In this document: in pieces, positions 3,159 to 33,871 of the stretch
Layout of the letters: each line of letters starts with the position of its first letter
Position numbering within the stretch: the first letter of the stretch is position 1
The notes under the pieces: generated by a model
Told to the model about the DNA's origin: nothing
Database searches by the model: none
Seen by the model: only the letters and a program-made list of their open reading frames with translations
IMG/VR virus record: IMGVR_UViG_2563366802_000014
Origin: a virus
Lineage: Duplodnaviria > Heunggongvirae > Uroviricota > Caudoviricetes
DNA: 39,173 nucleotides
Reading direction: 5' to 3' (one strand)
Program-made: the position numbers and the translations under genes

Positions 3159-5621
3159 TCAATTCCCTGTTAATTGCAAAACTTGCTCTTCCAGCTTTTT
3201 AACCCTGCGTCTCATCATCGCAGATTCCAGAATCAGAGCCTCTTCATAACGGATACCGTAACATTCACCAGCCTCGACGGCTTCGCGTACCAGAACCTTT
3301 GTCTGTATAAGTGGGTAAACTCCTGCAGAATGCTCTTCTTCCGTCACATCCCTGTATTCTGCCGGGGTCTCATTCCACTTGTCATAACAGATAAATGCCA
3401 GTCGTGACACATCTATGCCTTCATTCTGAAATACACTGATAACATGCTGCGCAACTGCACCAAAGTGCCATCTTGCTCCGTCTTTACCTTTCACTTCGAT
3501 CCTGTCAAGGTACTGGTATGAAACCCATTCCACTCTTTCCCATGCGTCCAGTATTTTCTCATCAATAACCTCTGGAGCAGTCTTGAAACGCGCATCGGAC
3601 AGCACCGTAAACGCTGACTGGGTAAATCCCCCCGACCATGCACGACCAGCCAACCCAAGAGAATAAGTATTCGTTGTCGATGGTGTCATGGCTGAATCAG
3701 AAAACTGTATATATTCTGAATTTCCAGTAGATATTCGAATATTTCCATTTATTAGCGACATAGTGCCTTTAGTATTATCACTATTGAATAATTTCAATTG
3801 CGAACTTATACCGCCTCCCACAGCCAGAGATACATCGCCTTCAGCAAGCATTCTGAATTTATCTGCAGAAACAAGCGTCTGGTTAGCAAGGTTAAAATAT
3901 TTAACCCACCATTCAAAACGCCCTGACATAGTCCCAACGTACTGACCAAGCGCAGGGACGTGAACAACATTGCTATTTGTAGTGCCGTCTATACTGGAAA
4001 TACCAGTCACCGCTGATGCAGAACTCAGAATATTATTTCTGTCACCCGGATGTTTAATTTCAACAAAGTTCCTGATACACCCTTCCTCGAAGGTAACCAC
4101 GCCGGAAGAACTATACATGGGGAATATTGACGCATAATTACTGCGTGCAGCATCTAAGAAACGAATGGTTGTAGATGTCTGCAGATCTCCTGATTCATTT
4201 TTCCCATCACACCCAGTCATTAGAATATTACTGGCAATATTATTATTTCCCTGAACGGTGACGCCGTGCGCCTGCTTTGCGTCCGATTCAGAGTAATCAA
4301 CCAGCACATCCGAAATCAGGTTACCAGTCCCCTTGCCAACAACTACTGCGGCGTATTTTGGGTTGTTAGCCATTACACTGCTAATGATATTATTCGTTGG
4401 GGCAGTTTCCGTCTCAGTTCCATTGTAAACAACGTGCTGACACTCTTCACCAATAACATTGCTGACAATGTTATATTTTGCTGCTGTTTTAAGTTCCACT
4501 GCACCAAACTGAGGATAATTTCTGGCTATCACACCATCAATTAGCGTATTTTGCGATGAATCAAAAAGCACACAACCTGCTTTTTTATTATTTGCGAACC
4601 CTAAATACTCTCCTCTTATATCTCTAACAATGTAACCTGACGGAATACCATTATTCGGATAAGCGATCAAGCTAAATCCTGTTCCTCGCGTATTTGTAAA
4701 TCTGATATTTTTAACCGATACATCATGGCCACCTGAAAATGACACCTGGTGTCCCTGCACACTATCATCTGATTTATTTCCCATAATTGTTAGCGTACTA
4801 AGCATGCCACCATCGGGCATGTTAAAAACCAGATGATTACCATCTCTGTCATACTGTTTTATCGTTCCCCCACCTGTTCCGTACAAGCCACAACGTGAAA
4901 GAGAAACTAAAGATGTATTGAATACCCCTTCCGGAACAAAAACACTGCTAAACGAATGTAATGATTTTGTAAAAGCATCCTTGTTATCATTTAAGATTCC
5001 ATTTTGAGCTCCAAAATCCTTAATGCTGACACCATCACGCATCTTATCCTGGAACGTTCTGTATACCGCTCCAGAACCATACTGAATAAACCAACCAAAA
5101 CCACCAATAACTCCGGCGATTGCAGCATCGACATAATTACGCATTGAGCGATTATTTACAGCGTCCTGCTCAAGTGATGGATCGGCAAGGTTAGATATTC
5201 TGTTTTGCTTTGCATCGTAATATTTTGCAAGCAAAGATGGTTTCATCAATGCACGTCTGAACCACCCAAAACATCGCTGGATCAGCATCGTCAGGTAGTC
5301 AAATGCATCCTCATGAACTTCGGGGAAAAATTTTCCCTGATTGCGAAGATCAGTCTCCTGCACCACATCAAGCACACGCTCTATCGTGATTCGCCAGCCA
5401 GCAGCAAGCGGCGACGGAAGAACCACTGCACCGCCACTATAAGTTCCCGCCCCTGTTACCGTATAACCAGCATCCAGCACTAGTTTTGTAACGTTACCGT
5501 TAAGGTCAGACACCTGAACAACCAGGTCGGATTTTTTGAAAATACGGAAGGTATACGGAAATGATGTCGTAACGCCGTTACCTGTGTATTCGTTGTGGTC
5601 AACTTCGGTTGAGACCGTCAT
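3159..5621 (-). CDS. Tailspike / tail fiber, probable polysaccharide depolymerase with C-terminal S74-type intramolecular chaperone domain
   Basis: 820 aa; N-terminal particle-binding-like segment; central Gly/Asn-rich repeats suggestive of beta-helix; C-terminal motif LSDARFKTAPE matching the S-D-x-R-x-K autoproteolytic chaperone signature; RBS GGAG upstream. Confidence 0.75.
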   Translation of the reverse strand: MTVSTEVDHNEYTGNGVTTSFPYTFRIFKKSDLVVQVSDLNGNVTKLVLDAGYTVTGAGTYSGGAVVLPSPLAAGWRITIERVLDVVQETDLRNQGKFFPEVHEDAFDYLTMLIQRCFGWFRRALMKPSLLAKYYDAKQNRISNLADPSLEQDAVNNRSMRNYVDAAIAGVIGGFGWFIQYGSGAVYRTFQDKMRDGVSIKDFGAQNGILNDNKDAFTKSLHSFSSVFVPEGVFNTSLVSLSRCGLYGTGGGTIKQYDRDGNHLVFNMPDGGMLSTLTIMGNKSDDSVQGHQVSFSGGHDVSVKNIRFTNTRGTGFSLIAYPNNGIPSGYIVRDIRGEYLGFANNKKAGCVLFDSSQNTLIDGVIARNYPQFGAVELKTAAKYNIVSNVIGEECQHVVYNGTETETAPTNNIISSVMANNPKYAAVVVGKGTGNLISDVLVDYSESDAKQAHGVTVQGNNNIASNILMTGCDGKNESGDLQTSTTIRFLDAARSNYASIFPMYSSSGVVTFEEGCIRNFVEIKHPGDRNNILSSASAVTGISSIDGTTNSNVVHVPALGQYVGTMSGRFEWWVKYFNLANQTLVSADKFRMLAEGDVSLAVGGGISSQLKLFNSDNTKGTMSLINGNIRISTGNSEYIQFSDSAMTPSTTNTYSLGLAGRAWSGGFTQSAFTVLSDARFKTAPEVIDEKILDAWERVEWVSYQYLDRIEVKGKDGARWHFGAVAQHVISVFQNEGIDVSRLAFICYDKWNETPAEYRDVTEEEHSAGVYPLIQTKVLVREAVEAGECYGIRYEEALILESAMMRRRVKKLEEQVLQLTGN

Positions 5622-5725
5622 GTTAAATCTCCAGATAGTCGCAGCACCCGTTGCGCCGCATATCTGGTTATTCTATTACCCAAAAAACCATATATGGATA
5701 GAAAGACTGTGAATATGAATAGATA

Positions 5726-5740
5726 TTACCTTTCAGGTAA
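5726..5740. promoter_or_regulatory. Operator-like palindrome TTACCtttcaGGTAA
   Basis: Perfect TTACC-N5-GGTAA inverted repeat about 40 bp upstream of the LexA box. Confidence 0.6.
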
Positions 5741-5777
5741 TTTTCAAAACGTGCTGGATAGCAAACAAATTATTTGC

Positions 5778-5797
5778 TACTGTATAAATATACAGTT
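5778..5797. promoter_or_regulatory. LexA (SOS) box TACTGTATAAATATACAGTT
   Basis: CTGT-N8-ACAG core at 5780-5795 with AT-rich spacer, close match to the enterobacterial LexA consensus, about 20 bp upstream of the 5818 start codon. Confidence 0.8.
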
Positions 5798-5817
5798 ATT
5801 GCATGGAGAAGATTAAG

Positions 5818-6075
5818 ATGCAGCAGTATCACTATCCACTGGAAGAGGGATTTACCGAAAGGATTCACACGCCGGGAGGCGTCAGGTCACTGGTGGAGGG
5901 ATCGCACTTGATGAAATTACTCCGGGATCTCGATAAGGATGGATTTAATGTCGATGGCCCACTTGCCGAACTGACTGCACTGATTAACTACGTCACCAGC
6001 TCACAGATGTCTATGCGGGATCTGCAAACACATCTCGACTATTGTGCCGAACAATTACGAAAACAAACCAGATAA
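5818..6075 (+). CDS. Small antirepressor-domain protein, SOS-controlled candidate antirepressor
   Basis: 85 aa from ATG 5818 (RBS GGAG 9 nt upstream; alternative start 5803); clearly similar to the C-terminal part of the adjacent 231-aa Bro-N protein (shared pattern LLxxL..DG..V.G..AELT ... RD.QTH..Y); preceded by LexA box. Confidence 0.6.
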   Translation: MQQYHYPLEEGFTERIHTPGGVRSLVEGSHLMKLLRDLDKDGFNVDGPLAELTALINYVTSSQMSMRDLQTHLDYCAEQLRKQTR

Positions 6076-6106
6076 GGTTTGTAATTACCAAGTGGAGTGC
6101 TTATAT

Positions 6107-6121
6107 TTACCTTTGCGGTAA
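6107..6121. promoter_or_regulatory. Operator-like palindrome TTACCtttgcGGTAA
   Basis: Perfect copy of the motif, lying in the loop between 7-bp inverted repeats GGAGTGC / GCACTCC. Confidence 0.55.
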
Positions 6122-6212
6122 ATTTACATCGCACTCCTCTTGTGCCATAGTAATCGGGCACTGGCAAAATCCAGTGCCGGGATTGGCGTCCCGGATTACT
6201 AAAAGGCGCATT

Positions 6213-6233
6213 CACCGCGCAAGCGGTTTTTTT
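6213..6233 (+). terminator. Rho-independent terminator after the small antirepressor-domain gene
   Basis: CCGC-GCAA-GCGG hairpin followed by seven T; preceded by a compact multi-hairpin element at 6150-6199. Confidence 0.5.
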
Positions 6234-6390
6234 ATGCGTATAGCACGGCCACATTCGTATTATGGTGGGCTGTGTGGGGGCACCGAAAGGTGCGCCGGGT
6301 CCTTTTAGCCGGTTACGCCAACCCTGCACAGTTCACCACCAACCGATTGGCGTCGGTAGTGGTGATTAACCAGACTAAAAGGTAACCACT

Positions 6391-7086
6391 ATGACAGCTA
6401 CAAAAAGCACGTCCATTTTTTCTTTCGAATCTCAAGCCGATATACGGGTAATCGTCATTAATGGTGAGCCATGGTTTATCGCTTCAGATGTTTGTCGGGC
6501 TATAGGCATAGCAAACCATCGAGATGCTGTTCGAAAACTTGATGATGATGAGAAGGGCGTCGCTTCAACCGACACCCCTGGCGGTGAGCAAGAATCGATC
6601 ATTATCTCCGAGTCAGGCCTCTACACACTGATCCTCCGCTGCCGCGATGCGGTGACACCAGGCACTATCCCCTACCGCTTTCGCAAATGGGTTACAGGTG
6701 AGGTTCTTCCTCAGATCCGCCGCACCGGAAGTTACATTAAAAACTCGCTCCCGCAGGAAGAACGCATAAAGATGGTTGCCGACCAGGTAGCCAACGCCAC
6801 GGCGTCAGCAGTAATGCAGGCGATGAAGATAGAGAACAAAACCTACAGCGCCCCGCTGAAGCCCGGCTACCGCAGCCTGATTCACTCGCCGTCTGGTGTT
6901 CTCGGCCTGACGGAAAACTCACTGCTGATGAATCTGCTGAACCAGTTACAGGAAGACGGGCACGACGTATCGGGCGCGGCGGCGGAGCTGACCACCATGT
7001 TTTGCTACATCGTTGGTGTGAGCAAGTGCCTGCGTGATATCCAGACGCACGCGGAGTACATCAACGACAAGGCTGGGTTCTTCTGA
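6391..7086 (+). CDS. Antirepressor, Bro-N domain protein
   Basis: N-terminal segment FSFESQADIRVIVINGEPWFIASDVCRAIG matches the Bro-N / antirepressor domain; C-terminal domain paralogous to the 85-aa protein. Confidence 0.75.
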   Translation: MTATKSTSIFSFESQADIRVIVINGEPWFIASDVCRAIGIANHRDAVRKLDDDEKGVASTDTPGGEQESIIISESGLYTLILRCRDAVTPGTIPYRFRKWVTGEVLPQIRRTGSYIKNSLPQEERIKMVADQVANATASAVMQAMKIENKTYSAPLKPGYRSLIHSPSGVLGLTENSLLMNLLNQLQEDGHDVSGAAAELTTMFCYIVGVSKCLRDIQTHAEYINDKAGFF

Positions 7087-7153
7087 CGGGCGGCGGCACA
7101 GGGACGTGCCTTTAAAATAATCATTGGCGATGTGATGTAGATTCGCGTAATAT

Positions 7154-7168
7154 TACCTTACGGGTAAA
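7154..7168. promoter_or_regulatory. Operator-like palindrome TTACCttacgGGTAA
   Basis: Perfect copy about 20 bp upstream of a -10-like TATATT and the RBS GAGGTG of the 7206 gene. Confidence 0.6.
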
Positions 7169-7205
7169 CCCCGTTTAATGGCGTTTCTATATTATGAGGT
7201 GATGT

Positions 7206-7841
7206 ATGCCACAACAACTGCTGAATCCGGCAAAGGTTACTGAAGTTTTCGCTCATCTGAACGAAACTCCAGACAACCGCGCCCTGTATTCAGAGTTAGT
7301 GAACGGCAACGATGTCACATCTGATGTCAAAGGCGTTTCTCTGGCTCCTGGATACCGCGTTGTCCGTGTAGACGATCGTAAGAAAGGCGAGATTCCACAG
7401 GCGCACTTCGAACTGGCATTGATAAATGACCTCACCGAAGAGGTAGTGTATTACAATCGTGTCATTATCCAACCTGACAGCTATCTTAACTGCCGACCTG
7501 TCACGCAGATATTGGTATGGAGAACCCAGAAGCCTAAGCATCGTGCTGTGCTTCATGATTTCGCCGGCATCATCTTCATGAACTACCTCTTGGAACGGTA
7601 CGATATCATCGTGTCAGATCGCAACCAGACTCATGAAGGCATGTCGTTCTGGCAGGCTCGCATGTATGACGCACTGGAACTTGGCCTCCACCTCTATGGT
7701 TACGACATGATGACATGCGAGCTGATAGAGATGAATAACGAGGAAGAGCTTGAGAAAGGTGAAACCTGGTTGTGGGGTGATGCGGAAAACTTCCAAAACA
7801 GATTGGCCATAATTTCAAAGCATAAGCTGCCAATAAAATAG
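7206..7841 (+). CDS. Hypothetical protein (211 aa), accessory gene with own operator and terminator
   Basis: ORF from track; strong RBS GAGGTG; acidic soluble protein with no motif I recognise. Confidence 0.6.
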   Translation: MPQQLLNPAKVTEVFAHLNETPDNRALYSELVNGNDVTSDVKGVSLAPGYRVVRVDDRKKGEIPQAHFELALINDLTEEVVYYNRVIIQPDSYLNCRPVTQILVWRTQKPKHRAVLHDFAGIIFMNYLLERYDIIVSDRNQTHEGMSFWQARMYDALELGLHLYGYDMMTCELIEMNNEEELEKGETWLWGDAENFQNRLAIISKHKLPIK

Positions 7842-7847
7842 TTCTTT

Positions 7848-7872
7848 AAGCCCGCGCCGCGGGCTTTTTTGT
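7848..7872 (+). terminator. Rho-independent terminator
   Basis: GC-rich hairpin GCCCGCG..CGCGGGC followed by six T, just after the stop codon of the 7206..7841 gene. Confidence 0.7.
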
Positions 7873-7908
7873 GTCTGCGGATTCCCGCCCTGGCGGCGGT
7901 GGCATTCG

Positions 7909-7934
7909 TTAAAAACAAGGCCGCGAAAGCGGCC
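7909..7934 (-). terminator. Rho-independent terminator (minus strand)
   Basis: Hairpin GGCCGC-GAAA-GCGGCC with GNRA-type loop, followed on the minus strand by TTGTTTTTAA; convergent with the plus-strand terminator. Confidence 0.65.
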
Positions 7935-7935
7935 T

Positions 7936-7947
7936 GTGACATGTCAC
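7936..7947. repeat. 12-bp perfect palindrome GTGACATGTCAC (copy 1 of 3)
   Basis: Overlaps the TGA stop codon of the 98-aa membrane protein gene and abuts the terminator. Confidence 0.8.
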
Positions 7948-8240
7948 GTTCCTTTTCTGAATGATAGCCATTCGAAAAATGATGACATTCCACCGCAGAC
8001 AATAGCAAAGATGATCCCACCAAAGAAGAGAAGGCCAGCCTGCCACCACTCCCACCGCCATACATCCACAGCGCCAACCATACCAACAATCGCTCCAACA
8101 AATGGAATATAGCTCACGATGAAAGCAATGGGGGCTGCAATTATCCAGTGCAATCCCCACCATGATTCAAGCCCAGCCATAATTGCTGCCAACTGAAAAA
8201 GACCAACGACGATATAAACAATGAATCCTATAGCTTGCAT
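7944..8240 (-). CDS. Small integral membrane protein (98 aa)
   Basis: ORF from track; 3-4 hydrophobic helices rich in G/A/I/W; RBS AGGTGA upstream; follows the internal virion protein genes. Confidence 0.6.
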   Translation of the reverse strand: MQAIGFIVYIVVGLFQLAAIMAGLESWWGLHWIIAAPIAFIVSYIPFVGAIVGMVGAVDVWRWEWWQAGLLFFGGIIFAIVCGGMSSFFEWLSFRKGT

Positions 8241-8252
8241 GTAGTCACCTAT

Positions 8253-8426
8253 TTACCCAGTAAAAATCAGAGGCCTCCCCTCAATAAGGCTTGCAACAAG
8301 AACTACTCCCTGCACAACAAAGATGAACCAGCAAATAGCTTGAGTCTGAGGGTTAAGAAAATATTTGTAGCGGTCAATAAATAACAGCCCACCAGAAATT
8401 ATCACACTCAAAATAATTAAAAACAC
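8253..8426 (-). CDS. Very small hydrophobic protein (57 aa, GTG start), tentative
   Basis: Hand-translated minus-strand ORF below the 60-aa track cutoff; RBS AAGGAAG 4 nt upstream of GTG; stop 12 nt before the next start. Confidence 0.35.
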   Translation of the reverse strand: MFLIILSVIISGGLLFIDRYKYFLNPQTQAICWFIFVVQGVVLVASLIEGRPLIFTG

Positions 8427-8435
8427 AACACTTCC

Positions 8436-10910
8436 TTATTGCGGAGTGACATCCTGAGGTCGCCACCAGTATGTCTGGTTAAACTCTTTCTTCGAACGTT
8501 GCTCCATTTTACGCAAATAGCCTGGTGAAAAATACTCCTGCATCTGGTTAAAGATCATGTGATCAAGAGCTGCCTTCAAGTACCAGAGATTCGCACCTGG
8601 CATCAGCCCTTTCCCAAGTTTCACCAGATCACCACCAGTCTGCTCGTTCTTCCCTTCCACAGCATTTAATGGTATGCCCTGAGCTATCTTCACTACGTCA
8701 TCAATCAGGCCAGCTACCGGGCCAAGCATCGACGCCAGCGCGCCGCTTCCGTACCTAGTGTGATCTGACAATAAAAAGTCACCGTAAAGGCCAAGACCAC
8801 CACCTTTCAGTAGAGCACCAAGCCAAAATTTAGCAGCATCTTCTCCTGTCATCTCGCGAGGATTACGACCAGACGCAAGGTCGTTAAGTTGCTGCGACAA
8901 AGCGCCAAGAATGGTCGTACTGGCAATAAACGTCGCAATATATGCCGCACGCCCACCAGCAGACGGCATACCCATAGCGCGTGACCAGTGACGCATAACC
9001 ACCGAGATAGGGAACGATTTAAACAGGAAAACACTTCTCGTTAATTCACCTTTCCATGTTCCACGCTGAATACCAGAACCGGTTATCAGTTGCTCACGTG
9101 CTCCCGGTGTAATAACAGCCATATCAACTTCTTCAGTTACGGCACCGAGCAGTTTACGCATTGCCTCAAATTTCACGCGTTCAGGCTCACCAAGATGTTT
9201 AACTGCTGAATCAGGGATACGCATAATGCTTTCCGGTGTCAGCATCGTATTATTACCGTTCCCCCAGTCCTCCTGTTGCGCCAGCTTCCATACGCTCCAG
9301 TCTGTGTCAGTAATCCCTTTGCTTTTCAGGATACGAAAATCAGAGTCATCGAGGCTACGAAGGTCTGGTGTCCGTGACACTACTTCTCCCAGGCTTCCCA
9401 TCATGGTTACGCCATAGGCGCGCTTGTGCGCATCTGACCATGCTGTAAGCCCACTGGCACGCATTACCGCCGTTGCTGCCCAACGAGACACTGACGGCCC
9501 CATATTATCCATCGCCCAGCGGTTAACGCTGCCAAGTAGAGATTCCATTGCCAGACCAGCGCGGCGCGCCCGCGCAAGTTCTGTACGGTTCGTTGGGTCC
9601 ATAGCTTCAAGCTGGTTGCGGAATAACTGGTTCATTGGAAGGTTGGTCACCTTCGCAGACAGATACATGGTTCCAAGATCAGAGAACGATGATAGCAACG
9701 CGGATCCGAGTCTGCTGGCAACCAGCCAGTTGCGGATATTGTCAGACCATCGCGCGATGTGCGGATTCGCTACAGGCTGTGTCTTTCCGGAAATAAAGTT
9801 GTACAGATTCTCTGTGTTGTTCGCCAGCCGCTCGACTTTACCGGTTTTACTCGGGTTAGCTGTTGCCGTTTCTGCCTTAACCTGATCAAGAAGGGAGCGG
9901 AAAACATGATCGGGGTTTGGACCATATGTTTCCACCAGAGCAATATCTTTACTGATACCTTCCAGGTGACCGACCATGATTTCCCATAGAGAGCGATCGC
10001 CATAAAGTTGTTGATATTGGAGATAGGAATCAGCATCTTTGAAATGTATCTGTCGTGATGCATTACCACGGTTAGCACGTGCGCCGGAAATTCGCATTCC
10101 GGTATCAGTAAGCTTATTCAGCCCACCAGTAGCGATCGTGTTATAAGCCTCTCCAAGAAATGCAGACAACTCGGCACCGTTCATCAGTTGTCCATCGGCT
10201 CGGGTATAATATTTGCGATCCAGCTTACCTATAACATCGTTAACCCACTTATCCTTTGATACCGCCCCAACCTTTTCCATAGAATGATGTTGAGGGATCC
10301 CCCAGTTTTCGAGATAGCCAATGTCCCCACCAGCATCATTAAACCGGCGGCGCAGCAGCTCTGTAACTTCTCTCCACGCCTTAGCACCTTTTCTTGCTTT
10401 AGCATTGCCAGTATTTTGCCCCCGCATTTCATATACCAGGTCACGTACGCCCGCTTCATCTTCAAACAGACCAAAAAAGCGAGGATCAACTGCTTCGAAT
10501 GCCTCCTGCAATTGACTCAATGCATAATCACGGGTGGCTTTTGTTCTGGATTCAACAGAGAGGAAATTAGATTTACCGTCTGCATTAAAAGCTATAGTAC
10601 GGTTAAGAGCGCCAAGTTTCCCATCAGCCCCTTGATAGCTATTGATAAATTTATCCAATCTCTGACGCGCGGCTATAGTGAGAGCCACACGACGTTTCTT
10701 TAATGCCGCTTCTCGCTGTAATTCTTCAGATGCCAATTGTGCTGCTCGATATAGCCGCTCTGATTCGGAAAGTTGTCGCCACGACATCGGGTCATCACGA
10801 GCAATGGAGCGCATATTTCGATAAATGCGGTCTTCAATGTTCTGTATTTCTCGCGCCGTTAACATGCGCTGCGCCGCCTGCTGAACCGCCTGTATACATT
10901 CCTGTCTCAT
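8436..10910 (-). CDS. Large internal virion / ejection protein (824 aa)
   Basis: Large ORF in the run of virion genes between the tail-tube-like genes and the tailspike; role inferred from size and position only. Confidence 0.55.
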   Translation of the reverse strand: MRQECIQAVQQAAQRMLTAREIQNIEDRIYRNMRSIARDDPMSWRQLSESERLYRAAQLASEELQREAALKKRRVALTIAARQRLDKFINSYQGADGKLGALNRTIAFNADGKSNFLSVESRTKATRDYALSQLQEAFEAVDPRFFGLFEDEAGVRDLVYEMRGQNTGNAKARKGAKAWREVTELLRRRFNDAGGDIGYLENWGIPQHHSMEKVGAVSKDKWVNDVIGKLDRKYYTRADGQLMNGAELSAFLGEAYNTIATGGLNKLTDTGMRISGARANRGNASRQIHFKDADSYLQYQQLYGDRSLWEIMVGHLEGISKDIALVETYGPNPDHVFRSLLDQVKAETATANPSKTGKVERLANNTENLYNFISGKTQPVANPHIARWSDNIRNWLVASRLGSALLSSFSDLGTMYLSAKVTNLPMNQLFRNQLEAMDPTNRTELARARRAGLAMESLLGSVNRWAMDNMGPSVSRWAATAVMRASGLTAWSDAHKRAYGVTMMGSLGEVVSRTPDLRSLDDSDFRILKSKGITDTDWSVWKLAQQEDWGNGNNTMLTPESIMRIPDSAVKHLGEPERVKFEAMRKLLGAVTEEVDMAVITPGAREQLITGSGIQRGTWKGELTRSVFLFKSFPISVVMRHWSRAMGMPSAGGRAAYIATFIASTTILGALSQQLNDLASGRNPREMTGEDAAKFWLGALLKGGGLGLYGDFLLSDHTRYGSGALASMLGPVAGLIDDVVKIAQGIPLNAVEGKNEQTGGDLVKLGKGLMPGANLWYLKAALDHMIFNQMQEYFSPGYLRKMEQRSKKEFNQTYWWRPQDVTPQ

Positions 10911-10915
10911 TTAAT

Positions 10916-12718
10916 TTAACCTCTCAAGAAACACGCCACAGCGACATCAAACAGGCTGGAATCCTGTATTGCCTGCTCACTTTCCCTGTTCGCTTCATCC
11001 AGTACTTCACGCGCACTGCGCGATTGTGGATTACCATCATCATCCAGCACGGTGATTATCATGTCAGGTGATTCAAGCAGCGAGTCTTCAGCTATACGCA
11101 GATCAATATCTCCTGCCGGATCTGCCATCATTTTTTGTTCTGTCTGTTGCAATATCTTACCGGGCTCAAAAGGAGCTACTTCGTCTGGCGTCCTGACCTC
11201 TGCTGTTTTATAGAATGAAACAGCCTGAGCATTAAGTTCACTTTCTGCCTGCTGTCGTCGTGCCAGTTCTGCTCGAGCTTCAAAAAACTGACCGCCAGGC
11301 TCATGCGGTGCCAACGCGTTACGGGAAAATTCCAGGCGCTCTTGTGCCTGCCGGATTCGTTGGTCAATATCGCGAAGTCTGACCTGTTTATCTGATCGAG
11401 CACGAGACAAAGCTTTACCGCTACCGGTTGGCTCTTCTGCAAGAATTTGTGCGCGCTGTTCAGTGAGATTTTCAATAATTCGTTGGCTATTAGCGATTTC
11501 AGACTGGTAAACCTGTCTATCGCCACGCGGCAAAAGCTGCGCGGCCTGTTCTTCAAGCAACCGATTTTCTATAGCGCGCGCCGTTACTCCATCATCTACA
11601 GATGACAGAGCCTCATTAACTGCCTGAGACAGCAGACTCTTGCGCCCAGGAATTTCACTGAAAGATGCAGACTCAACAATGCTGGCAACGTCTACAGGTC
11701 TCCCCTGGCTAACATCAGACATAGCTTTTCGCAGAGCCTGAATGTGAGAATTGCGCGAAAGCACGTTGATCGGCACGCCGGGCGCAATATCAATTTCAGC
11801 ATGATGAGCGGCATTCGCCGCCAGTGCAGCATCAACATCAACTGGTGAAAAATTTGGTGCGCTTGTAGACTCGCCGCGAGAGTTCATAAATCTGCCGACA
11901 CCACCAAACGCCACCCCAAGAACAGCATCAATAGCAATTGCCTGTCGATCCAACACATCATACTGGTTAGCCATTTCGCTATAGCCACCATCACGAAGCG
12001 TTTTTGCAGTAAGCCCACGCTGTGCCATACCGAACGCAATATTTGTACCTGCGGCATAGGCAATATCTGGCGTTGCACGCACTGCTGTTGCTGCGGCGCG
12101 TCGCACTGAACTTTCACCCGTCCGCGCAAGCTGGGCCGCCACACCTTCCGCCAGCGCACCACCAGCACGTAACCCGAGGCTCATAGGGATCAGTGTTCCG
12201 GCACCAGCAGTAATACCCTGCACTAATCCCGCTTCCTGCGCCGTCCTGAAATCAACACCCTGTGCTGTCAGCCGTTCAAACTCAGAAAAACCCTGTAGAG
12301 AAGTTACCGCCGCAGCACCTCCGACCGGACCACCGAGCGTTGTACCGACAACAGCCTGCCCTCCCATATCGAACAACCCATAAAGGACCTGCCCGGCGGT
12401 TCCGGTTGTCGCGGCATCAGGCGTCAGCCGCTTAACCTGCTGCTCTGCTAGTTTTCTCTGCTCAGCAATGTATGAAACTGAAGTGTCATTAAGCGAGGTG
12501 TTTTCGTTAACAAACTGAGCAATCGGGGATACGATTTTATCCATCCCTGCCCATAGCAACTGATCTGGCTTTGCCACCAGCCCGGAGTACAAACCAGACA
12601 ATGCCGCTCCTACAGCATTGTCGAAAAAACCAACATTGCTGTTAAAGCCAGCTGGATTTGATGCTGCTTCGTCAAGCTGCTGATTCTGGCTTACTGGATT
12701 AAGGCCAAAGTAACTCAT
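10916..12718 (-). CDS. Internal virion / ejection protein (600 aa)
   Basis: Gly/Ala-rich large ORF translationally coupled to its neighbours; role inferred from position. Confidence 0.5.
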   Translation of the reverse strand: MSYFGLNPVSQNQQLDEAASNPAGFNSNVGFFDNAVGAALSGLYSGLVAKPDQLLWAGMDKIVSPIAQFVNENTSLNDTSVSYIAEQRKLAEQQVKRLTPDAATTGTAGQVLYGLFDMGGQAVVGTTLGGPVGGAAAVTSLQGFSEFERLTAQGVDFRTAQEAGLVQGITAGAGTLIPMSLGLRAGGALAEGVAAQLARTGESSVRRAAATAVRATPDIAYAAGTNIAFGMAQRGLTAKTLRDGGYSEMANQYDVLDRQAIAIDAVLGVAFGGVGRFMNSRGESTSAPNFSPVDVDAALAANAAHHAEIDIAPGVPINVLSRNSHIQALRKAMSDVSQGRPVDVASIVESASFSEIPGRKSLLSQAVNEALSSVDDGVTARAIENRLLEEQAAQLLPRGDRQVYQSEIANSQRIIENLTEQRAQILAEEPTGSGKALSRARSDKQVRLRDIDQRIRQAQERLEFSRNALAPHEPGGQFFEARAELARRQQAESELNAQAVSFYKTAEVRTPDEVAPFEPGKILQQTEQKMMADPAGDIDLRIAEDSLLESPDMIITVLDDDGNPQSRSAREVLDEANRESEQAIQDSSLFDVAVACFLRG

Positions 12719-15228
12719 TGCGGAATATCTCCGGAGAATCTCTGACGTTTCTGTGTCAGATTAAGAACAACGGGAGAACCATCATCTTTCAGCAGATAAC
12801 CAGTACCAAGTTTCACCAGGTACTGACTATCGCCGTAACTTTGCAAACCATACTGACCAGGCGGTGTTTTTATCCCGGAGCCGACAACTTGTTCATTCCA
12901 AGCCTGATTAACCTGCTTATCGAATTGCTCTGCAGACATTCCCCACGGCAAAAGGACATTCCCCATTCCGTTATAGTCATGCACGCCACCTGTAGCTACG
13001 TTAACAGCCTGTTTCCAGACATCATTGTCAATTTCGCCTGATACCACGCCTTTTTTCGCCATCACACCAGCGTAATAGTCCTTTGCGATCTCGTATGCCA
13101 TTGATGCCCCCTGAGCATCACCAGCAAATGCATCCTTCACCATGTCAGAAAACTCAAGGCGAAGATCAGCATCTTTAGGCATCGGAATACCTTTCGCATC
13201 ATCAGTACCTTTACGAGCCGCCGCGCCAGCAAGAATTGTCTGCGCAGCGGTTTCAGGAGACACGGAAACATCCGGATTAAACCAGTTTTTTTCTGCCAAA
13301 ATACCACCAGGCTTGTCCATCAGTATCCCGGCAACGGCAGCAGATGGAGCGTTGGCACTGATCTGCTGTAGTGCTGACATATACACCTGCCCACCACCAG
13401 TGCTCTGCCTGATGGTATCGAGATATGCTGCCTGTTGGGAAACTGGAGCATCACGAAAGAAAACACCGATCTGATTGGCCTCGTCTTTGGAAAAGAACGT
13501 CAGTGGAGTGCCATATGACTTAGCAAGGTCACTGACCTGAGCAGCACGCAAGGCAACGCTCTGTCCAAAGTTATCCTTATTGCTCATGTCGATAGGCTTT
13601 GCCTGTCCGGCGGCAAGAGAGAACTGTACAGGATCAGCCTGTCTCTGCTTTATCACCTGACTTGCAGCCGACACAACGTTGTCATAAAGAGCGGCTCGTG
13701 CCGCATAACCCTCCCCTGTCTCACCAGTATCCGGGCGTAATTGCTCAACATATGCTGTAATGCTGCTTGTCGGCATGTTGCGGAAAGAGCCTATATACTG
13801 TCCGGCGATTTGCGTATTTCTGAACTCGGTATATCGCAGGTTTCCTTCTCTGACTCCATAAGCTGCAATAAAATCAGCCTCACCAGGTGGGTTAGGAAAT
13901 TCAACGCCACGCATATACGCAGCTGTCGCATCGCGAACTTGGCTGTCAATCATCGTTTTATATTCAGCCTGCTGCTGCCGACGCAGTTGATCCGCCTGTC
14001 GCATAAAACTTGCCTGCGCCTCAGGAGATGCCGCATCGAATGCTGCATTACCGGTATAGCGTTTGGTGTTGGTTGGAATTGTTGATAAACCAAGTGCTGC
14101 ACTGACACCAGCAGTTAACTGCTGATCACTGTATGGCTGGCTACCGTTCTCATGATGGATAATGGCTGCACAAAGCGCCTTCAGGGTATCAGGATTAGAT
14201 GCATCGAGAGGCTCATCAGCAGAAACGCCAAGTTGTTCGCACACTGCTTTGATATACGACATAGTGTCATTTTTATCAGTAGGCGGTGCCCAGCGATTAA
14301 TTATCTCGCTGACGGTATCAATACCCTGTCTCTGATACGACATCAGGTTCCGCCCTAATGCACGAATCCCGTGTTCAGGTGTTTCGAATTTAGCAAATCG
14401 ACCATCATCACCGGTCTGGCCTACCCACGGATTGGTTTTGCTGTATTCGAGATTTCCTGGGTTATTGTTGCGTATGCCACGGGCACGCTCGGAAGAATCA
14501 CTATCTGCTACAGCACGGCGAGCTCCAGCAGCAGTATCACTTAACTCGCCATTACTTTGGATGAATGCGGTCGCATTGTTTGCCGACCACTGGGACAATG
14601 CTGCATCAGCAACCTTCTCTTTAAACTCGATTTTCTTGGCCTGGATTTGCTCGTCGCTCCAGCCATGCGCAATGCCGTAATCCTCAATTTGCTGGAAAGT
14701 TTGCTTATTAGCCAATACGTATGCGGCGTTGTCGCCATACAATGCTGCGGCATTTTTACCATTGTTCAGCAGCGTAGCCTGAAACTGGCCTTCTTCGTAG
14801 GCATTTATTTGCCCTATCTCGTGCCGCCCGGCCTGCGTAGTGAACTGAATGCGCTGCTGCTGCGCCTGCTGCATGAAAGCATTACGAGCCTGTTCATCCG
14901 GCAGCGACATAGCCAGTTGCTCGACCTTGGCATCAAACTGCTGCGTATACTCCTGACCTTTTCCAATAGCATTTTTCCCTTTCAGGTTAAGCAAACCTGT
15001 TTCAGGGTTATTCAGCAGATCGCTGCTTATCTGGCTTAAGCTAAGAGAAGCATCCTGAGCCATAGCAACATTCGCACGCTGTTTTGCCTGCGCAATAATA
15101 CCTGCATATTGCTCTGCAACATCGCCAAGTACATCACCGACATTTGGTGTCTGAAACGATGAGAATCCCTGCGTCGAAATCCCTCTGCTCTGAACCTGAC
15201 GGCCCGATGTTGTTGGTACAACTGGCAT
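12715..15228 (-). CDS. Large internal virion / ejection protein (837 aa)
   Basis: Large ORF in the virion gene run; contains the segment GIRNNNPGNLEYSKTNPWVGQ of unknown significance. Confidence 0.5.
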   Translation of the reverse strand: MPVVPTTSGRQVQSRGISTQGFSSFQTPNVGDVLGDVAEQYAGIIAQAKQRANVAMAQDASLSLSQISSDLLNNPETGLLNLKGKNAIGKGQEYTQQFDAKVEQLAMSLPDEQARNAFMQQAQQQRIQFTTQAGRHEIGQINAYEEGQFQATLLNNGKNAAALYGDNAAYVLANKQTFQQIEDYGIAHGWSDEQIQAKKIEFKEKVADAALSQWSANNATAFIQSNGELSDTAAGARRAVADSDSSERARGIRNNNPGNLEYSKTNPWVGQTGDDGRFAKFETPEHGIRALGRNLMSYQRQGIDTVSEIINRWAPPTDKNDTMSYIKAVCEQLGVSADEPLDASNPDTLKALCAAIIHHENGSQPYSDQQLTAGVSAALGLSTIPTNTKRYTGNAAFDAASPEAQASFMRQADQLRRQQQAEYKTMIDSQVRDATAAYMRGVEFPNPPGEADFIAAYGVREGNLRYTEFRNTQIAGQYIGSFRNMPTSSITAYVEQLRPDTGETGEGYAARAALYDNVVSAASQVIKQRQADPVQFSLAAGQAKPIDMSNKDNFGQSVALRAAQVSDLAKSYGTPLTFFSKDEANQIGVFFRDAPVSQQAAYLDTIRQSTGGGQVYMSALQQISANAPSAAVAGILMDKPGGILAEKNWFNPDVSVSPETAAQTILAGAAARKGTDDAKGIPMPKDADLRLEFSDMVKDAFAGDAQGASMAYEIAKDYYAGVMAKKGVVSGEIDNDVWKQAVNVATGGVHDYNGMGNVLLPWGMSAEQFDKQVNQAWNEQVVGSGIKTPPGQYGLQSYGDSQYLVKLGTGYLLKDDGSPVVLNLTQKRQRFSGDIPQ

Positions 15229-15240
15229 CTTATTATCCCC

Positions 15241-15780
15241 TTATCGACCGGTTGGAGTGCCAACAGCAGCAGAAATCGGCGCAGCCTTCTGAGAGAATGG
15301 GCTCCACGTTCCTCCGCCCATCTGGTATGCACCGTATGCTTTTAGTGGTGCCGTTAACAAAGTGCTGGTCATCGATGATTTAGCAGCCGACTGAGCAGCA
15401 GCCCCCTGTGCCTGAGCATTCATTCCCTGAACCTGATACCCATATGCCTCACGCTGAGCATTATTCACTGTCGTTAACGCATCAAGAGTGCCGAACTGAG
15501 CATTATCCGCAAAAACGTCAAGAGCTGTTCCGCTACTTAATTCCGCACCGGTAGCCCCCATAGTGGCCGCCGCAGTGCCTGAGCGTTGACGCATTTCACG
15601 ACGACGCTGATCCGCTTCAATATTCCCACGATTGATTGAATCCTGTGCCTGAGCTTCAGCAATTTCAGCATTCCGATCAGCTATGGCTGACTGGTATTTT
15701 GCCTGCTTGCTCTGGCTGTACATTGACGCGGCTGTGGATGCCACTGTGACGGCAACCAAAGCGATGGCTGGGTTACACAT
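15241..15780 (-). CDS. Internal virion protein, membrane-associated (179 aa)
   Basis: N-terminal hydrophobic segment then Ala/Gln/Gly-rich body; position comparable to small internal core proteins of podoviruses. Confidence 0.45.
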   Translation of the reverse strand: MCNPAIALVAVTVASTAASMYSQSKQAKYQSAIADRNAEIAEAQAQDSINRGNIEADQRRREMRQRSGTAAATMGATGAELSSGTALDVFADNAQFGTLDALTTVNNAQREAYGYQVQGMNAQAQGAAAQSAAKSSMTSTLLTAPLKAYGAYQMGGGTWSPFSQKAAPISAAVGTPTGR

Positions 15781-16244
15781 TATTTTCTCTCCATGTGAAA
15801 TCTGTGGAAATAAAGACCAAGAGCTCCATAAGGCGCGGCTTCTTCAAGCCTGAATCCAAGCCAGTGCAGCCATGCTTTGGCAACATGGTTTCGCTCGTCG
15901 ACGTAGTTTTCCAGGCGCGGATAAACTGCCAGCATCTGCTGCAATACAGGGCGGCAGTGGCGCAGAAATGTCTTCTGATATTTTTCAATACGGCTGGTTC
16001 CTACCAGCCAGGGCGTACCATTGCCACCGATCATTGACGCCGGAGATACACCAAACATGGTTACCAGTTCTCCGTTCGCGAACCCTGACCAGGCCATAGT
16101 CGCAGTGCGAAGACCAACAAGCAGCGCATCTTCGGTAGTCATCAGCGATACCGCATACAGTTCGTCAATATCAGCCTGACGAACATCCGGCAAAATCATC
16201 TGAAGATGCTCTTCGGTGGCGGGAATAATTCGAACATCGATCAT
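15780..16244 (-). CDS. Virion-associated protein (154 aa)
   Basis: ORF coupled between the tail-tube-B-like and internal protein genes; role from position only. Confidence 0.4.
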   Translation of the reverse strand: MIDVRIIPATEEHLQMILPDVRQADIDELYAVSLMTTEDALLVGLRTATMAWSGFANGELVTMFGVSPASMIGGNGTPWLVGTSRIEKYQKTFLRHCRPVLQQMLAVYPRLENYVDERNHVAKAWLHWLGFRLEEAAPYGALGLYFHRFHMERK

Positions 16245-33286: not shown

Positions 33287-33871
33287 ATGAAAAGTATCCA
33301 GGACGTCCGCAGGCAAAATCTCAACGACTTGATCGACCGTGAATTCAATGGTGTTCAGACGCGGATGGCAGAAAAACTTGGAACTCAGGCAAATCTGGTA
33401 AACCGCTGGGCTCTTGGCAAGAAGGTTATCGGCGACCAGGTTGCGCGAAAAATTGAAGCTGCCGCCAATAAACCCCGTAACTGGCTTGATATCGATCGCT
33501 CGCTTTCTCAGGAAGGTTTTCAGCCTGTCGGCCCAAGCGATATTGGTCAGCTGGCAGCTCACAACCTGGAACGCTGGATGAGTGAAAGCCGCGACCTTTC
33601 AACTCAGGGAAAACTTCACCGCGCATCCGGCGTCGCCCAGGTGACAATAAGCCGCCTGTTAAACAATGAGGTCAGCGTTTCCATTTCCACCCTGGAGAAT
33701 GTTGCATCTGCATTCGGGCGTCACGGATATGAACTACTGATTCATCCGCATGACCCTGCAACTATCAACTATGACCGCTCGCGCTACGCATTGTTACCTG
33801 AAACAGAGAAGGCAAAGATCGAAAGTTACATTGAATTTGTCATCAACCAGAACGAAAAAAACAAACAATAA
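33287..33871 (+). CDS. Prophage repressor candidate, tandem-HTH protein without recognisable autocleavage domain
   Basis: N-terminal HTH (QTRMAEKLGTQANLVNRWALGKK) and a second HTH-like segment (ASGVAQVTISRLLNNEVSVSISTLENVASAFG); no Ala-Gly / Ser-Lys peptidase signature seen; divergent from Cro-like gene. Confidence 0.6.
   Translation: MKSIQDVRRQNLNDLIDREFNGVQTRMAEKLGTQANLVNRWALGKKVIGDQVARKIEAAANKPRNWLDIDRSLSQEGFQPVGPSDIGQLAAHNLERWMSESRDLSTQGKLHRASGVAQVTISRLLNNEVSVSISTLENVASAFGRHGYELLIHPHDPATINYDRSRYALLPETEKAKIESYIEFVINQNEKNKQ

Follow-up and report, generated by a model that had tools for sequence, protein, structure and literature searches.

What a lone gene does between the structural genes of a temperate phage, and when it is made, is the question raised by one short segment of the window analysed here, a 39,173-nucleotide stretch of DNA from a tailed virus (Caudoviricetes; IMG/VR record IMGVR_UViG_2563366802_000014). 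The gene encodes a 211-aa protein and, as the initial annotation had noticed, is read against its surroundings: it lies on the plus strand and opposes the tailspike gene (3159..5621) and the virion genes (8436..10910 and beyond), all on the minus strand. That annotation took the segment for part of a P22-type phage and proposed a function expressed in the lysogen, such as superinfection exclusion, abortive infection or defence, or else a further antirepressor. The comparisons described here point elsewhere, to a single-gene cargo cassette (7098-7891) in a repressor-controlled slot of an epsilon15/phiV10-type temperate podovirus, whose product would be a GNAT-fold effector of induction or of the early phase. 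As a whole, this explanation stands, in our judgement, at an even chance.

A single-gene cassette in a variable slot

At 97% identity, the window matches three epsilon15-like Uetakevirus phages (phiV10, HEMP4 and phiv142-3), and the assignment to the P22 type must be given up. The accessory island is functionally analogous to immI. Its boundaries emerge from blastn comparison with phiV10, in which homology ends at 7097 and restarts at 7892, with GGCGGCGG-like microhomology at both ends of the insert. In phiv142-3, common sequence extends to 7168, taking in the promoter and the operator, and returns at 7874 with other ORFs in between. The slot that the cassette fills, with the ejection/virion genes on one side and the tailspike on the other, varies in content: it is occupied by one 29-codon ORF in phiV10 and by three other small ORFs in phiv142-3. 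No DNA-level match to the 211-aa gene was found in 50,697 phage records, phiV10 and epsilon15 included, and the gene is present in 13 of 5,426 E. coli genomes.

The 211-aa gene is genuine and, much as the initial annotation had described it, forms a self-contained accessory unit, here in a prophage of the epsilon15/phiV10 type (Table 1). The ORF list agrees on its extent and strand, and a dN/dS of 0.025 against a 96%-identical homologue marks it as a true coding gene under purifying selection. The strong ribosome-binding site is borne out by a GAGG placed 6 nt before the ATG, in a Shine-Dalgarno site also kept in the E. coli copies. Equally sound is the strong terminator, a hairpin (7848-7866) with an 8-bp stem of six GC pairs and a predicted dG of -13.4 kcal/mol, followed by a T-run; in the Dickeya copy, the stem is kept via compensatory changes (AAGCCCAC/GTGGGCTT). 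Upstream, the 119-bp gap at 7087-7205 contains no ORF. The hairpin behind the stop codon of the preceding ant gene is weak (-8.5 kcal/mol, z -1.0), has no T-run and is absent from the terminator-scan list, so transcription may read through from ant into the 211-aa gene.

Table 1. Positions in the window of the cassette, its control elements and the genes of the repressor circuit
Feature	Position	Strand	Basis
Predicted Rep operator 5′ of the small antirepressor gene	5726..5740		motif search
Perfect LexA box CTGTATAAATATACAG, separated by 7 nt from the start of the small ant gene downstream	5780..5795		motif search
Small antirepressor, 90 aa, SPC32H Ant homologue	5803..6075	+	phmmer vs PDB 5D50_E, E 6e-47
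Predicted Rep operator at the Bro-N/Ant gene promoter (TTGTAA-17-TATATT, 6079-6107)	6107..6121		scan and motif search
Bro-N protein with C-terminal SPC32H-type Ant domain (residues 150-226)	6391..7086	+	Pfam, PDB
Weak hairpin GGCAC-N6-GTGCC behind the stop codon of ant	7095..7110	+	folding
Cargo insert absent from phiV10, ~794 bp (promoter/operator, gene, terminator)	7098..7891		blastn
Promoter-like site TTGGCG-18 nt-TAATAT	7124..7153	+	read by eye, 8/12 match
Predicted operator of the prophage repressor Rep, TTACCTTACGGGTAA	7153..7167		motif count, epsilon15 annotation
Shine-Dalgarno site GAGGTGAT	7196..7203	+	sequence
CDS, 211 aa; PHROG 1349 member, predicted divergent GNAT-like fold	7206..7841	+	ORF list
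Rho-independent terminator, AAGCCCGC-GCC-GCGGGCTT then T-run	7848..7872	+	terminator scan, folding
Convergent terminator closing the virion-gene operon	7918..7935	-	common to phiV10; outside the cargo
Prophage repressor Rep	33287..33871	+	PDB 5D50_A (SPC32H Rep), PHROG/Pfam HTH matches

Candidate promoter and repressor operator

The -10-like TATATT (7188-7193) to which transcription had been ascribed ends only 2 nt before the Shine-Dalgarno site, and the Dickeya cassette has TACATC in its place. It cannot serve the ribosome-binding site, since the transcript, beginning some 7 nt further on, would miss it. A better candidate is a weak sigma-70-like promoter further upstream, with a -35 TTGGCG at 7124-7129 and a -10 TAATAT at 7148-7153, directly abutting the palindrome at 7153-7167. 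This site falls below the cut-off of a sigma-70 consensus scan of 7087-7205, which from 9/12 upwards returned none. The geometry of the element (-35, 17 nt, -10, TACC) recurs at a PL-like promoter (TTGACA, operator 33991) and at the ant promoter, the latter found by scan, and again 5′ of the homologues in Dickeya, phage LLS and the contexts L058, L049 and L033. It persists 5′ of homologues with identities of only 30-89%.

The palindrome is one copy of a motif that recurs far more often than chance would allow. Allowing at most one mismatch, TTACC-N5-GGTAA occurs 14 times in the window against 0.52 expected, a count that none of 100 shuffles reached, and the same motif is annotated as ‘protein_bind repressor’ in the epsilon15 GenBank record. 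Its copies precede both antirepressor genes and flank the gene of an SPC32H-Rep homologue, forming pairs around it in OR/OL-like positions (33169/33217 and 33929/33991). That homologue matches SPC32H Rep in the PDB over its full length (5D50_A, residues 1-190, E 4e-42) and has homology to two HTH regions in PHROG and Pfam. SPC32H Rep has been described as a tetramer on palindromic sites that is dismantled by Ant (PMC9638917), and the repressor and antirepressor roles have been demonstrated in a Uetakevirus by overexpression (PMC9782041). The sequence comparisons thus identify the palindrome as a putative operator of the prophage repressor, centred on the transcription start predicted from the -10 hexamer. 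The operator-like site of the initial annotation is thus a real palindrome and matches the operator of the master repressor.

The operator also follows the gene into other genomes. It is kept 5′ of the Dickeya homologue although synonymous divergence is saturated, and in about one third of distinct homologue contexts it lies (with at most one mismatch) within 200 nt upstream, as against 2.4% of background 200-nt windows. Phage LLS has a perfect operator 5′ of its homologue and no partner sites elsewhere in the genome, and expression there may be constitutive, judging by this arrangement. Photorhabdus copies have a TTATC-N5-GATAA variant upstream, which is not enriched elsewhere in those loci. 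Other roles for the palindrome were considered. A TTACC/GGTAA RNA hairpin lies outside the predicted minimum-energy fold, with unremarkable z-scores, and a DNA operator fits better because the 14 copies are distributed at promoters. For this phage, a site for a host factor or for autoregulation was set aside on the evidence of phiV10, which has the same 14 sites without the 211-aa gene.

With a Rep operator at its start, the 211-aa gene is predicted to belong to the Rep regulon, silent in the lysogen and expressed alongside the antirepressors. Both genes upstream of it match known antirepressors, the small one along its LexA-boxed reading frame (Table 1) and the larger through Pfam Bro-N (E 2e-21) and 5D50_E (E 1e-13). 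The 211-aa protein shows no Ant or Bro-N similarity in Pfam or PHROG, which speaks against the proposed further antirepressor, and no LexA box precedes its gene. The window therefore contains full-length Rep and Ant homologues of the SPC32H/epsilon15 switch together with a gene that bears the same operator, lacks the LexA box of the small ant and has not been described as part of that switch.

A predicted, divergent GNAT-like fold

The protein (24.6 kDa) is, as first described, acidic and soluble, with a pI of 5.27, a GRAVY of -0.39 and no membrane segment (highest 19-residue Kyte-Doolittle mean 1.07). That it belongs to no recognisable family is true of Pfam (no family at E up to 1), NCBIfam (no match) and PADLOC-DB 2.0 (no defence family at E up to 1), but not of PHROG, where it is a full-length member of PHROG 1349 (E 3e-78), a family annotated as of unknown function. 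Grouped at 90% identity, the family counts 99 clusters, and at 50% it has 937 representatives; every one of these proteins consists of a single domain and is about 200 aa long. Among 126 diverse members, Pfam detected no GNAT family at E up to 0.1; with the 10 longest members added, it returned only a likely gene-call fusion (DUF5397) and a sub-threshold Phd/YefM match. Two family profiles searched against PDB sequences brought up nothing meaningful, and no homology to structural or replication proteins was found. Our literature search on PHROG 1349, and on GNAT proteins of prophages in defence or anti-defence, retrieved no characterised member.

Family members are found only in cargo positions of temperate phages or as orphan genes, and form a single-gene unit in every context examined. 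A Pseudomonas member lies where a P2-like prophage ends, beside its portal gene, that of the lambdoid phage LLS follows Rz behind the lysis cassette, and further members lie inside tail operons or beside integrases. In 13 of 35 loci, including contexts other than Uetakevirus, an Ant/Arc-type switch gene stands next to the family member, while a Dickeya prophage, whose copy is 89% identical in amino acids and saturated at synonymous sites, has the homologue in the slot without any Bro-N ant gene. Orphan chromosomal copies without a nearby phage switch occur in Photorhabdus and Enterobacter, and orphans are abundant in natural-product producers (Photorhabdus, Xenorhabdus, Erwinia, Serratia and Pseudomonas).

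An AF2 model of the 211-aa protein (pLDDT 85, pTM 0.82) has the core mixed alpha/beta arrangement of the GNAT, or acyl-CoA N-acyltransferase, fold, of which the protein appears to be a divergent example. TM-scores to solved GNATs reach only 0.3-0.44. The best match is the C-terminal acetyl-CoA-binding domain of Rv1916/ICL2; the nearest solved structures further include NatD/Naa40, HAT1, KKT23 and AAC(2′)-Ia, with AAC(3), meta-AAC0020, MccE, ArsN/PAT and EctA also among the structural neighbours; in BFVD, the neighbours are uncharacterised phage proteins and NAT_SF proteins. The model differs from the GNAT superfamily in an N-terminal two-helix extension and an extra C-terminal helix-strand, and the sequence has no HMM-level similarity to any Pfam GNAT family. 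Between beta4 and alpha3, the motif A pyrophosphate loop (Q/R-x-x-G-x-G/A) is absent, and the loop after strand 98-106 reads WR-TQKPK-HR, without a glycine. Residues invariant in the family (W105, R106, H112, D138, Q141, T142, G145, F148 and W149) would line the beta4-alpha3/beta5-alpha4 cleft, a placement made by secondary-structure order only.

AcrVA5 and Rac are phage-encoded GNAT-fold effectors with unusual donors or targets, and with Mom of phage Mu they share what the 211-aa protein appears to be, a small stand-alone phage protein on a GNAT scaffold in phage-host conflict. Mom carries out a Gly-tRNA-dependent adenine modification of DNA (PMC13219725). The likeness to Mom would extend to timing, the 211-aa protein being made in lytic development and otherwise kept tightly off. 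A direct relationship to Mom was rejected (hhalign probability 0.3%; BLASTP E 0.04 over 21 residues), a Mom homologue standing at rank 28 of the BFVD list with a TM-score of 0.33. Nor was any kinship found with a virion protein of the phage itself, a homologue of epsilon15 gp13, which the epsilon15 record calls GNAT-like.

Timing and possible function

Classical morons, in the sense of Hendrix and colleagues, are expressed from a repressed prophage. With such genes, for example those of the P22 immI region, the cassette shares a single gene set between conserved genes, a promoter-like site and terminator of its own, and patchy presence. It differs in that its promoter carries the operator of the prophage repressor and in that promoter and operator travel with the gene between phages. 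This contrast bears on the function first proposed, a moron for defence, exclusion or abortive infection whose product, made in the lysogen, blocks superinfecting phages. The cassette's own promoter-like site and terminator and its orientation opposed to the late genes agree with it, as do the positions of family members at known cargo and defence hot-spots (P2-like portal, post-lysis in LLS, tail operons, integrases) and the possibility that the LLS copy, with its solitary operator, is constitutive. Yet the Rep operator sits on the predicted start here just as it does at ant and the early promoters, no PADLOC model matches, and no nuclease, NTPase, TIR, Sir2 or other effector domain is present, while the missing membrane segment makes exclusion of the SieA or Cor type unlikely. 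Lysogen-expressed protection is accordingly improbable.

The structure raises a different doubt, namely whether the protein is an enzyme at all. As its best structural match, the C-terminal domain of ICL2, senses acetyl-CoA without being catalytic, the 211-aa protein may not be an enzyme either. It could instead be a non-catalytic GNAT-like scaffold that senses acyl-CoA or binds proteins and acts as a regulator at induction, helping to commit the switch or modulating host physiology through a partner such as Rep, LexA/RecA or a host enzyme. The loss of the canonical catalytic/CoA loop signature suits such a regulator, as do the frequent Ant/Arc-type neighbours and the Dickeya prophage in which the gene holds the slot without a Bro-N ant; however, the adjacency to ant may merely mirror a common accessory region, the protein resembles neither Ant nor the Bro-N or KilAC domain, and the orphan copies of Photorhabdus and Enterobacter speak against a phage-specific partner. 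We consider a scaffold of this kind rather unlikely. Conversion by a small-molecule acetyltransferase, of the type that confers aminoglycoside, microcin or phosphinothricin resistance or detoxification, is very unlikely. It draws on the resistance enzymes among the structural neighbours and on the orphans of natural-product producers, but those matches score no better than protein acetyltransferases, NCBIfam shows no sequence similarity to resistance families, and a conversion gene would be of no use if, as predicted, the lysogen keeps it repressed. Lysogeny by the related Uetakevirus ZX5 left antibiotic sensitivity unchanged (PMC9782041), which is weak evidence here because the similarity of ZX5 to the window starts again only at ~7874, past the 211-aa gene. 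The faintest prospect is a GNAT toxin of a toxin-antitoxin module (TacAT, AtaRT or KacAT) that acetylates aminoacyl-tRNA: no antitoxin ORF accompanies the gene, whether in the non-coding gap upstream or in the other single-gene contexts, the protein is longer than TacT/AtaT-like toxins and lacks the canonical CoA motif, and toxins match it no better than generic GNATs do.

On the preferred explanation, a repressor-wired effector, the operator makes it probable that the gene is activated when the prophage is induced or a cell infected, and not while the lysogen rests. In the lysogen, an SPC32H-type Rep would sit on the operator and keep the gene off, like the antirepressor genes and early promoters. 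DNA damage would lead to synthesis of the LexA-boxed small Ant and removal of Rep from DNA, whereupon the 211-aa gene would fire together with the remaining Rep regulon; it would also fire on entry into a naive cell, before Rep builds up. The mechanism we infer as most likely is that the protein binds an acyl donor in its cleft, either acyl-CoA or an activated acyl group of another kind such as Mom uses, and that early in the lytic phase it modifies or binds a target belonging to the host or to a competitor. Its role would then be host take-over or counter-defence, not protection of the lysogen. Counting against this explanation, family members elsewhere occupy classic moron positions, where lysogen expression is common.

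A bolder version, which we hold to be doubtful though worth stating, would make PHROG 1349 a new class of phage GNAT-fold effectors that have lost the canonical CoA loop. Fired with the antirepressor on induction or infection, such a protein would modify a host or rival protein, tRNA or DNA as a counter-defence or commitment factor. The gene would be portable among unrelated temperate phages with its Rep-operated promoter, and incoming copies could be silenced in trans by resident epsilon15-type prophages.

At present, the 211-aa gene product is a well-documented hypothetical protein and not a demonstrated new mechanism. The analysis nonetheless assigns a predicted fold and a regulatory logic to a widespread unannotated gene, which forms more than 900 clusters (50% identity) in prophages of Enterobacterales and Pseudomonas. 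It also suggests that the prophage repressor can control cargo occupying a ‘moron’ position, which reverses the usual expectation of timing; for cargo wired in this way, suitable assays are induction or infection phenotypes rather than protection of the lysogen. Should the protein prove to be an acyltransferase that acts on a defined target, it would represent a new phage effector family, and cargo exchange in epsilon15-like phages would be explained if recombination generally used the operator-linked promoter as its joint.

A mobile cargo gene in an epsilon15/phiV10-type phage

The window is a complete or nearly complete temperate podovirus of the epsilon15/phiV10 type (Uetakevirus). Positions 5600-13000 are 97% identical to phiV10, HEMP4 and phiv142-3, and the order of tailspike, small ORF, Bro-N protein and large internal virion proteins is that of the phiV10 and epsilon15 records. 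The initial annotation had correctly delimited the ORF of interest (7206..7841, + strand, 211 aa) and rightly described it as transcribed against the virion genes, with which it is convergent, and as encoding an acidic, soluble protein (pI 5.27, membrane segment absent). The gene is under strong purifying selection, since dN/dS against a 96%-identical copy is 0.025 and a Dickeya copy, against which synonymous sites are saturated, still encodes a protein of 89% identity.

The gene is a mobile single-gene cargo cassette in a variable slot. Homology to phiV10 ends at 7097 and restarts at 7892; in the same slot, phiV10 carries a single 29-codon ORF and phiv142-3 three other small ORFs. The latter phage matches the window up to 7168, promoter-like site and palindrome (TTACC-N5-GGTAA) included, and diverges beyond, which makes the palindrome the joint where different cargos attach. 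At both ends of the segment missing from phiV10 lies a GGCGGCGG-like microhomology (7089-7097 and 7880-7891), which would fit an illegitimate recombination event at the right-hand joint. No record of the phage collection matched the cassette at the DNA level; among 5,426 complete E. coli genomes, 13 have a copy with 97-98% identity, which lies in the same prophage context and is annotated 'hypothetical protein'. Most of these copies have a long upstream form, with two copies of the palindrome around ~97 bp (7880-8054 in the IAI39 locus, L001; also loci L015, L016, L018-L021 and L026). Within the intervening segment, a strong SD (GGAGGAG) precedes a mini-ORF of 10 codons (MRKFDEYEGV), which may be a leader peptide or another cargo's remnant. 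In the window and in loci L022 and L023 the palindrome is single and hybrid, which looks like the outcome of a deletion between the two repeats.

Facing the cassette at the 3′ end of the virion operon are two small hydrophobic ORFs of 98 and 57 aa (7944-8240 and 8253-8426, - strand). In phiV10 this region (7944-8426) is different and encodes a membrane protein of 46 aa; the window's 98-aa product belongs to PHROG 3075 (no assigned function), with a faint holin-like Pfam match.

Homologues likewise occupy cargo positions of temperate elements, always as single-gene units devoid of a conserved partner. Antirepressor (Ant) or Arc-like switch genes adjoin the family member in 13 of 35 loci. Other members lie between major tail and tape-measure genes, after minor tail genes, beside integrases, at the end of P2-like Pseudomonas prophages adjoining the portal gene, in a P1-like element, and after the spanin genes of the lambdoid phage LLS; Photorhabdus and Enterobacter have orphan chromosomal copies.

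Predicted operator control of the cassette

The "operator-like site" of the initial annotation is real, and it proves to be the operator of the prophage repressor Rep. With at most one mismatch, TTACC-N5-GGTAA occurs 14 times in the window against 0.52 expected, and as often in phiV10, though that phage is without the 211-aa gene. The epsilon15 GenBank record marks ATTACC-N5-GGTAAT in seven places as 'protein_bind: repressor, lysogeny'. Besides the pairs near the repressor gene and the recombination operon, single sites precede several other operons and each gene of the island. This pattern suggests that one repressor directly represses most promoters of the phage. The operator heads nearly every transcription unit of the window, well beyond the surroundings of the repressor gene.

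Features of the cassette and of the Rep operator network in the window
Feature	Position	Strand	Remark
SD GAGGTGAT	7196-7203	+	ahead of 211-aa gene
Intrinsic terminator with T-run	7848-7866	+	dG -13.4 kcal/mol
Virion operon terminator	7935-7918	-	converges on 211-aa gene
Rep operator	5726-5740		upstream of small Ant ORF 5803-6075
Perfect LexA box CTGTATAAATATACAG	5780-5795		upstream of 5803-6075
Rep operators, all 14	5494, 5726, 6107, 7153, 24512, 27639, 27657, 30824, 30886, 32832, 33169, 33217, 33929, 33991
Island operators	5726, 6107, 7153		one before each island gene
Operator pair with degenerate third (~33195)	33169/33217		between cro-like gene and repressor gene 33287-33871
Operator pair	33929/33991		ahead of recombination operon; second directly 3′ of perfect TTGACA -35

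Over its full length the repressor is homologous to SPC32H Rep (PDB 5D50_A, E 4e-42), and the 90-aa product of 5803-6075 is a close homologue of the SPC32H antirepressor, whose structure is solved (5D50_E, E 6e-47). Published accounts describe SPC32H Rep as a tetramer on palindromic sites that is disassembled by Ant (PMC9638917). In a related Uetakevirus, overexpression experiments showed the lytic-lysogenic choice to be governed by the repressor and antirepressor (PMC9782041). With its LexA box and Rep operator, the segment 5726-6075 would trigger induction in the SOS response under dual control by LexA and Rep. The protein of 6391-7086 fuses Bro-N (residues 17-107) to a C-terminal SPC32H-type Ant domain (residues 150-226). 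The phage therefore has a pair of Ant-domain paralogues, and each has a separate Rep operator in front of it.

The sole plausible -10 of the 211-aa gene, TAATAT (7148-7153), lies 18 nt past TTGGCG and abuts the operator, placing the latter over the predicted start site, an arrangement shared with the ant and PL-like promoters. From this geometry and the homologies above, the gene is predicted to belong to the Rep regulon and to be off in the lysogen. At a distance of 2 nt from the SD, the previously proposed TATATT (7188-7193) lies too close to serve that RBS, and it is not conserved in Dickeya. No LexA box of its own was found at the gene, which would be switched on at induction or upon infection of a naive cell, alongside the antirepressors.

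The operator accompanies the gene elsewhere. Upstream of homologues of 30-89% identity recurs a layout of a TTGCAx-like -35, 16-17 nt, a TAxxAT-like -10 and TACC-N5-GGTAA, found in Bro-N-less Dickeya prophages, other podovirus-like contigs, one siphovirus-like contig and LLS. About one-third of distinct contexts have an operator with at most one mismatch in the 200 nt upstream, versus 2.4% of background 200-nt windows. The 42.9-kb LLS genome has a single exact copy of the motif, located 87 nt before its family member. The most parsimonious explanation is an origin of the cassette in epsilon15-like phages and its spread along with the Rep-operated promoter. In LLS (locus L065), the perfect operator (42053-42067) and a TTGGCT-17-TACTAT promoter precede gene 57, the family member; this operator is either a leftover or a means by which a resident epsilon15-like prophage could repress the gene in trans. 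In Photorhabdus copies the motif takes a symmetric variant form, TTATC-N5-GATAA, with no enrichment elsewhere in the Photorhabdus loci. A second palindrome, TTCAAC-N5-GTTGAA, follows just downstream of the operator in Dickeya-type and divergent podovirus copies (L024, L025, L058 and L049), and as TTGAAC-N5-GTTCAA lies upstream in Photorhabdus copies (L008, L034 and L035).

A divergent GNAT-like fold and its possible roles

The earlier description of a protein with no recognisable family holds for Pfam, NCBIfam and PADLOC, where it has zero matches, but not for PHROG 1349, a family without assigned function that it matches over its full length. The family comprises 99 clusters at 90% identity, in Escherichia, Salmonella, Dickeya, Serratia, Klebsiella, Erwinia, Yersinia, Photorhabdus, Xenorhabdus and Pseudomonas. 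Its 937 representatives at 50% identity are nearly all single-domain proteins of ~200 aa, among which no informative domain fusion was found; nor did the literature searched hold a characterised member.

Structure prediction, a check the initial annotation had proposed, points to a divergent GNAT-like fold. The AlphaFold2 model (31 sequences) is confident (pLDDT 85, pTM 0.82), and its structural neighbours are Rv1916 and the ICL2 C-terminal acetyl-CoA-binding domain (scores 9.9 and 9.4), NatD (8.6), HAT1 (8.5) and AAC(2′)-Ia (7.4). Foldseek agrees with a probability of ~1.0, but with TM-scores of just 0.3-0.44; in a viral structure library, uncharacterised phage proteins come first and NAT_SF proteins next. 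The canonical Q/R-x-x-G-x-G/A loop is absent. Going by secondary-structure order, the family-invariant residues (W105, R106, H112, D138, Q141, T142, G145, F148 and W149) would map to the β4-α3 and β5-α4 loops, the GNAT cofactor and active-site cleft. Sequence and profile comparison rejected kinship to Mu Mom. The homologue of epsilon15 gp13 that the phage itself encodes (15780-16244, - strand), an internal virion protein that the epsilon15 record calls GNAT-like by HHpred, is also no relative (hhalign probability 0.1%).

The protein may present an acyl-donor-binding cleft and act on a host or competitor target during early lytic development. Mom, a GNAT that uses Gly-tRNA to modify DNA (PMC13219725), shows that phage GNAT scaffolds take unexpected donors and targets, and the missing CoA motif is hence no argument against enzymatic function. 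The lysogen-expressed defence or exclusion role proposed initially from genomic context is disfavoured, both by the repressor operator on the promoter region and by the lack of a match to any defence model. The main alternatives are a non-catalytic acyl-CoA-sensing or binding role and the modification of a small molecule; a GNAT toxin is unlikely.

The anatomy of the cassette is now better understood than before. The protein is a new variant of a known fold that is unrecognisable by sequence, and the cassette is a known kind of element with unusual regulatory wiring, a repressor operator on a cargo gene.
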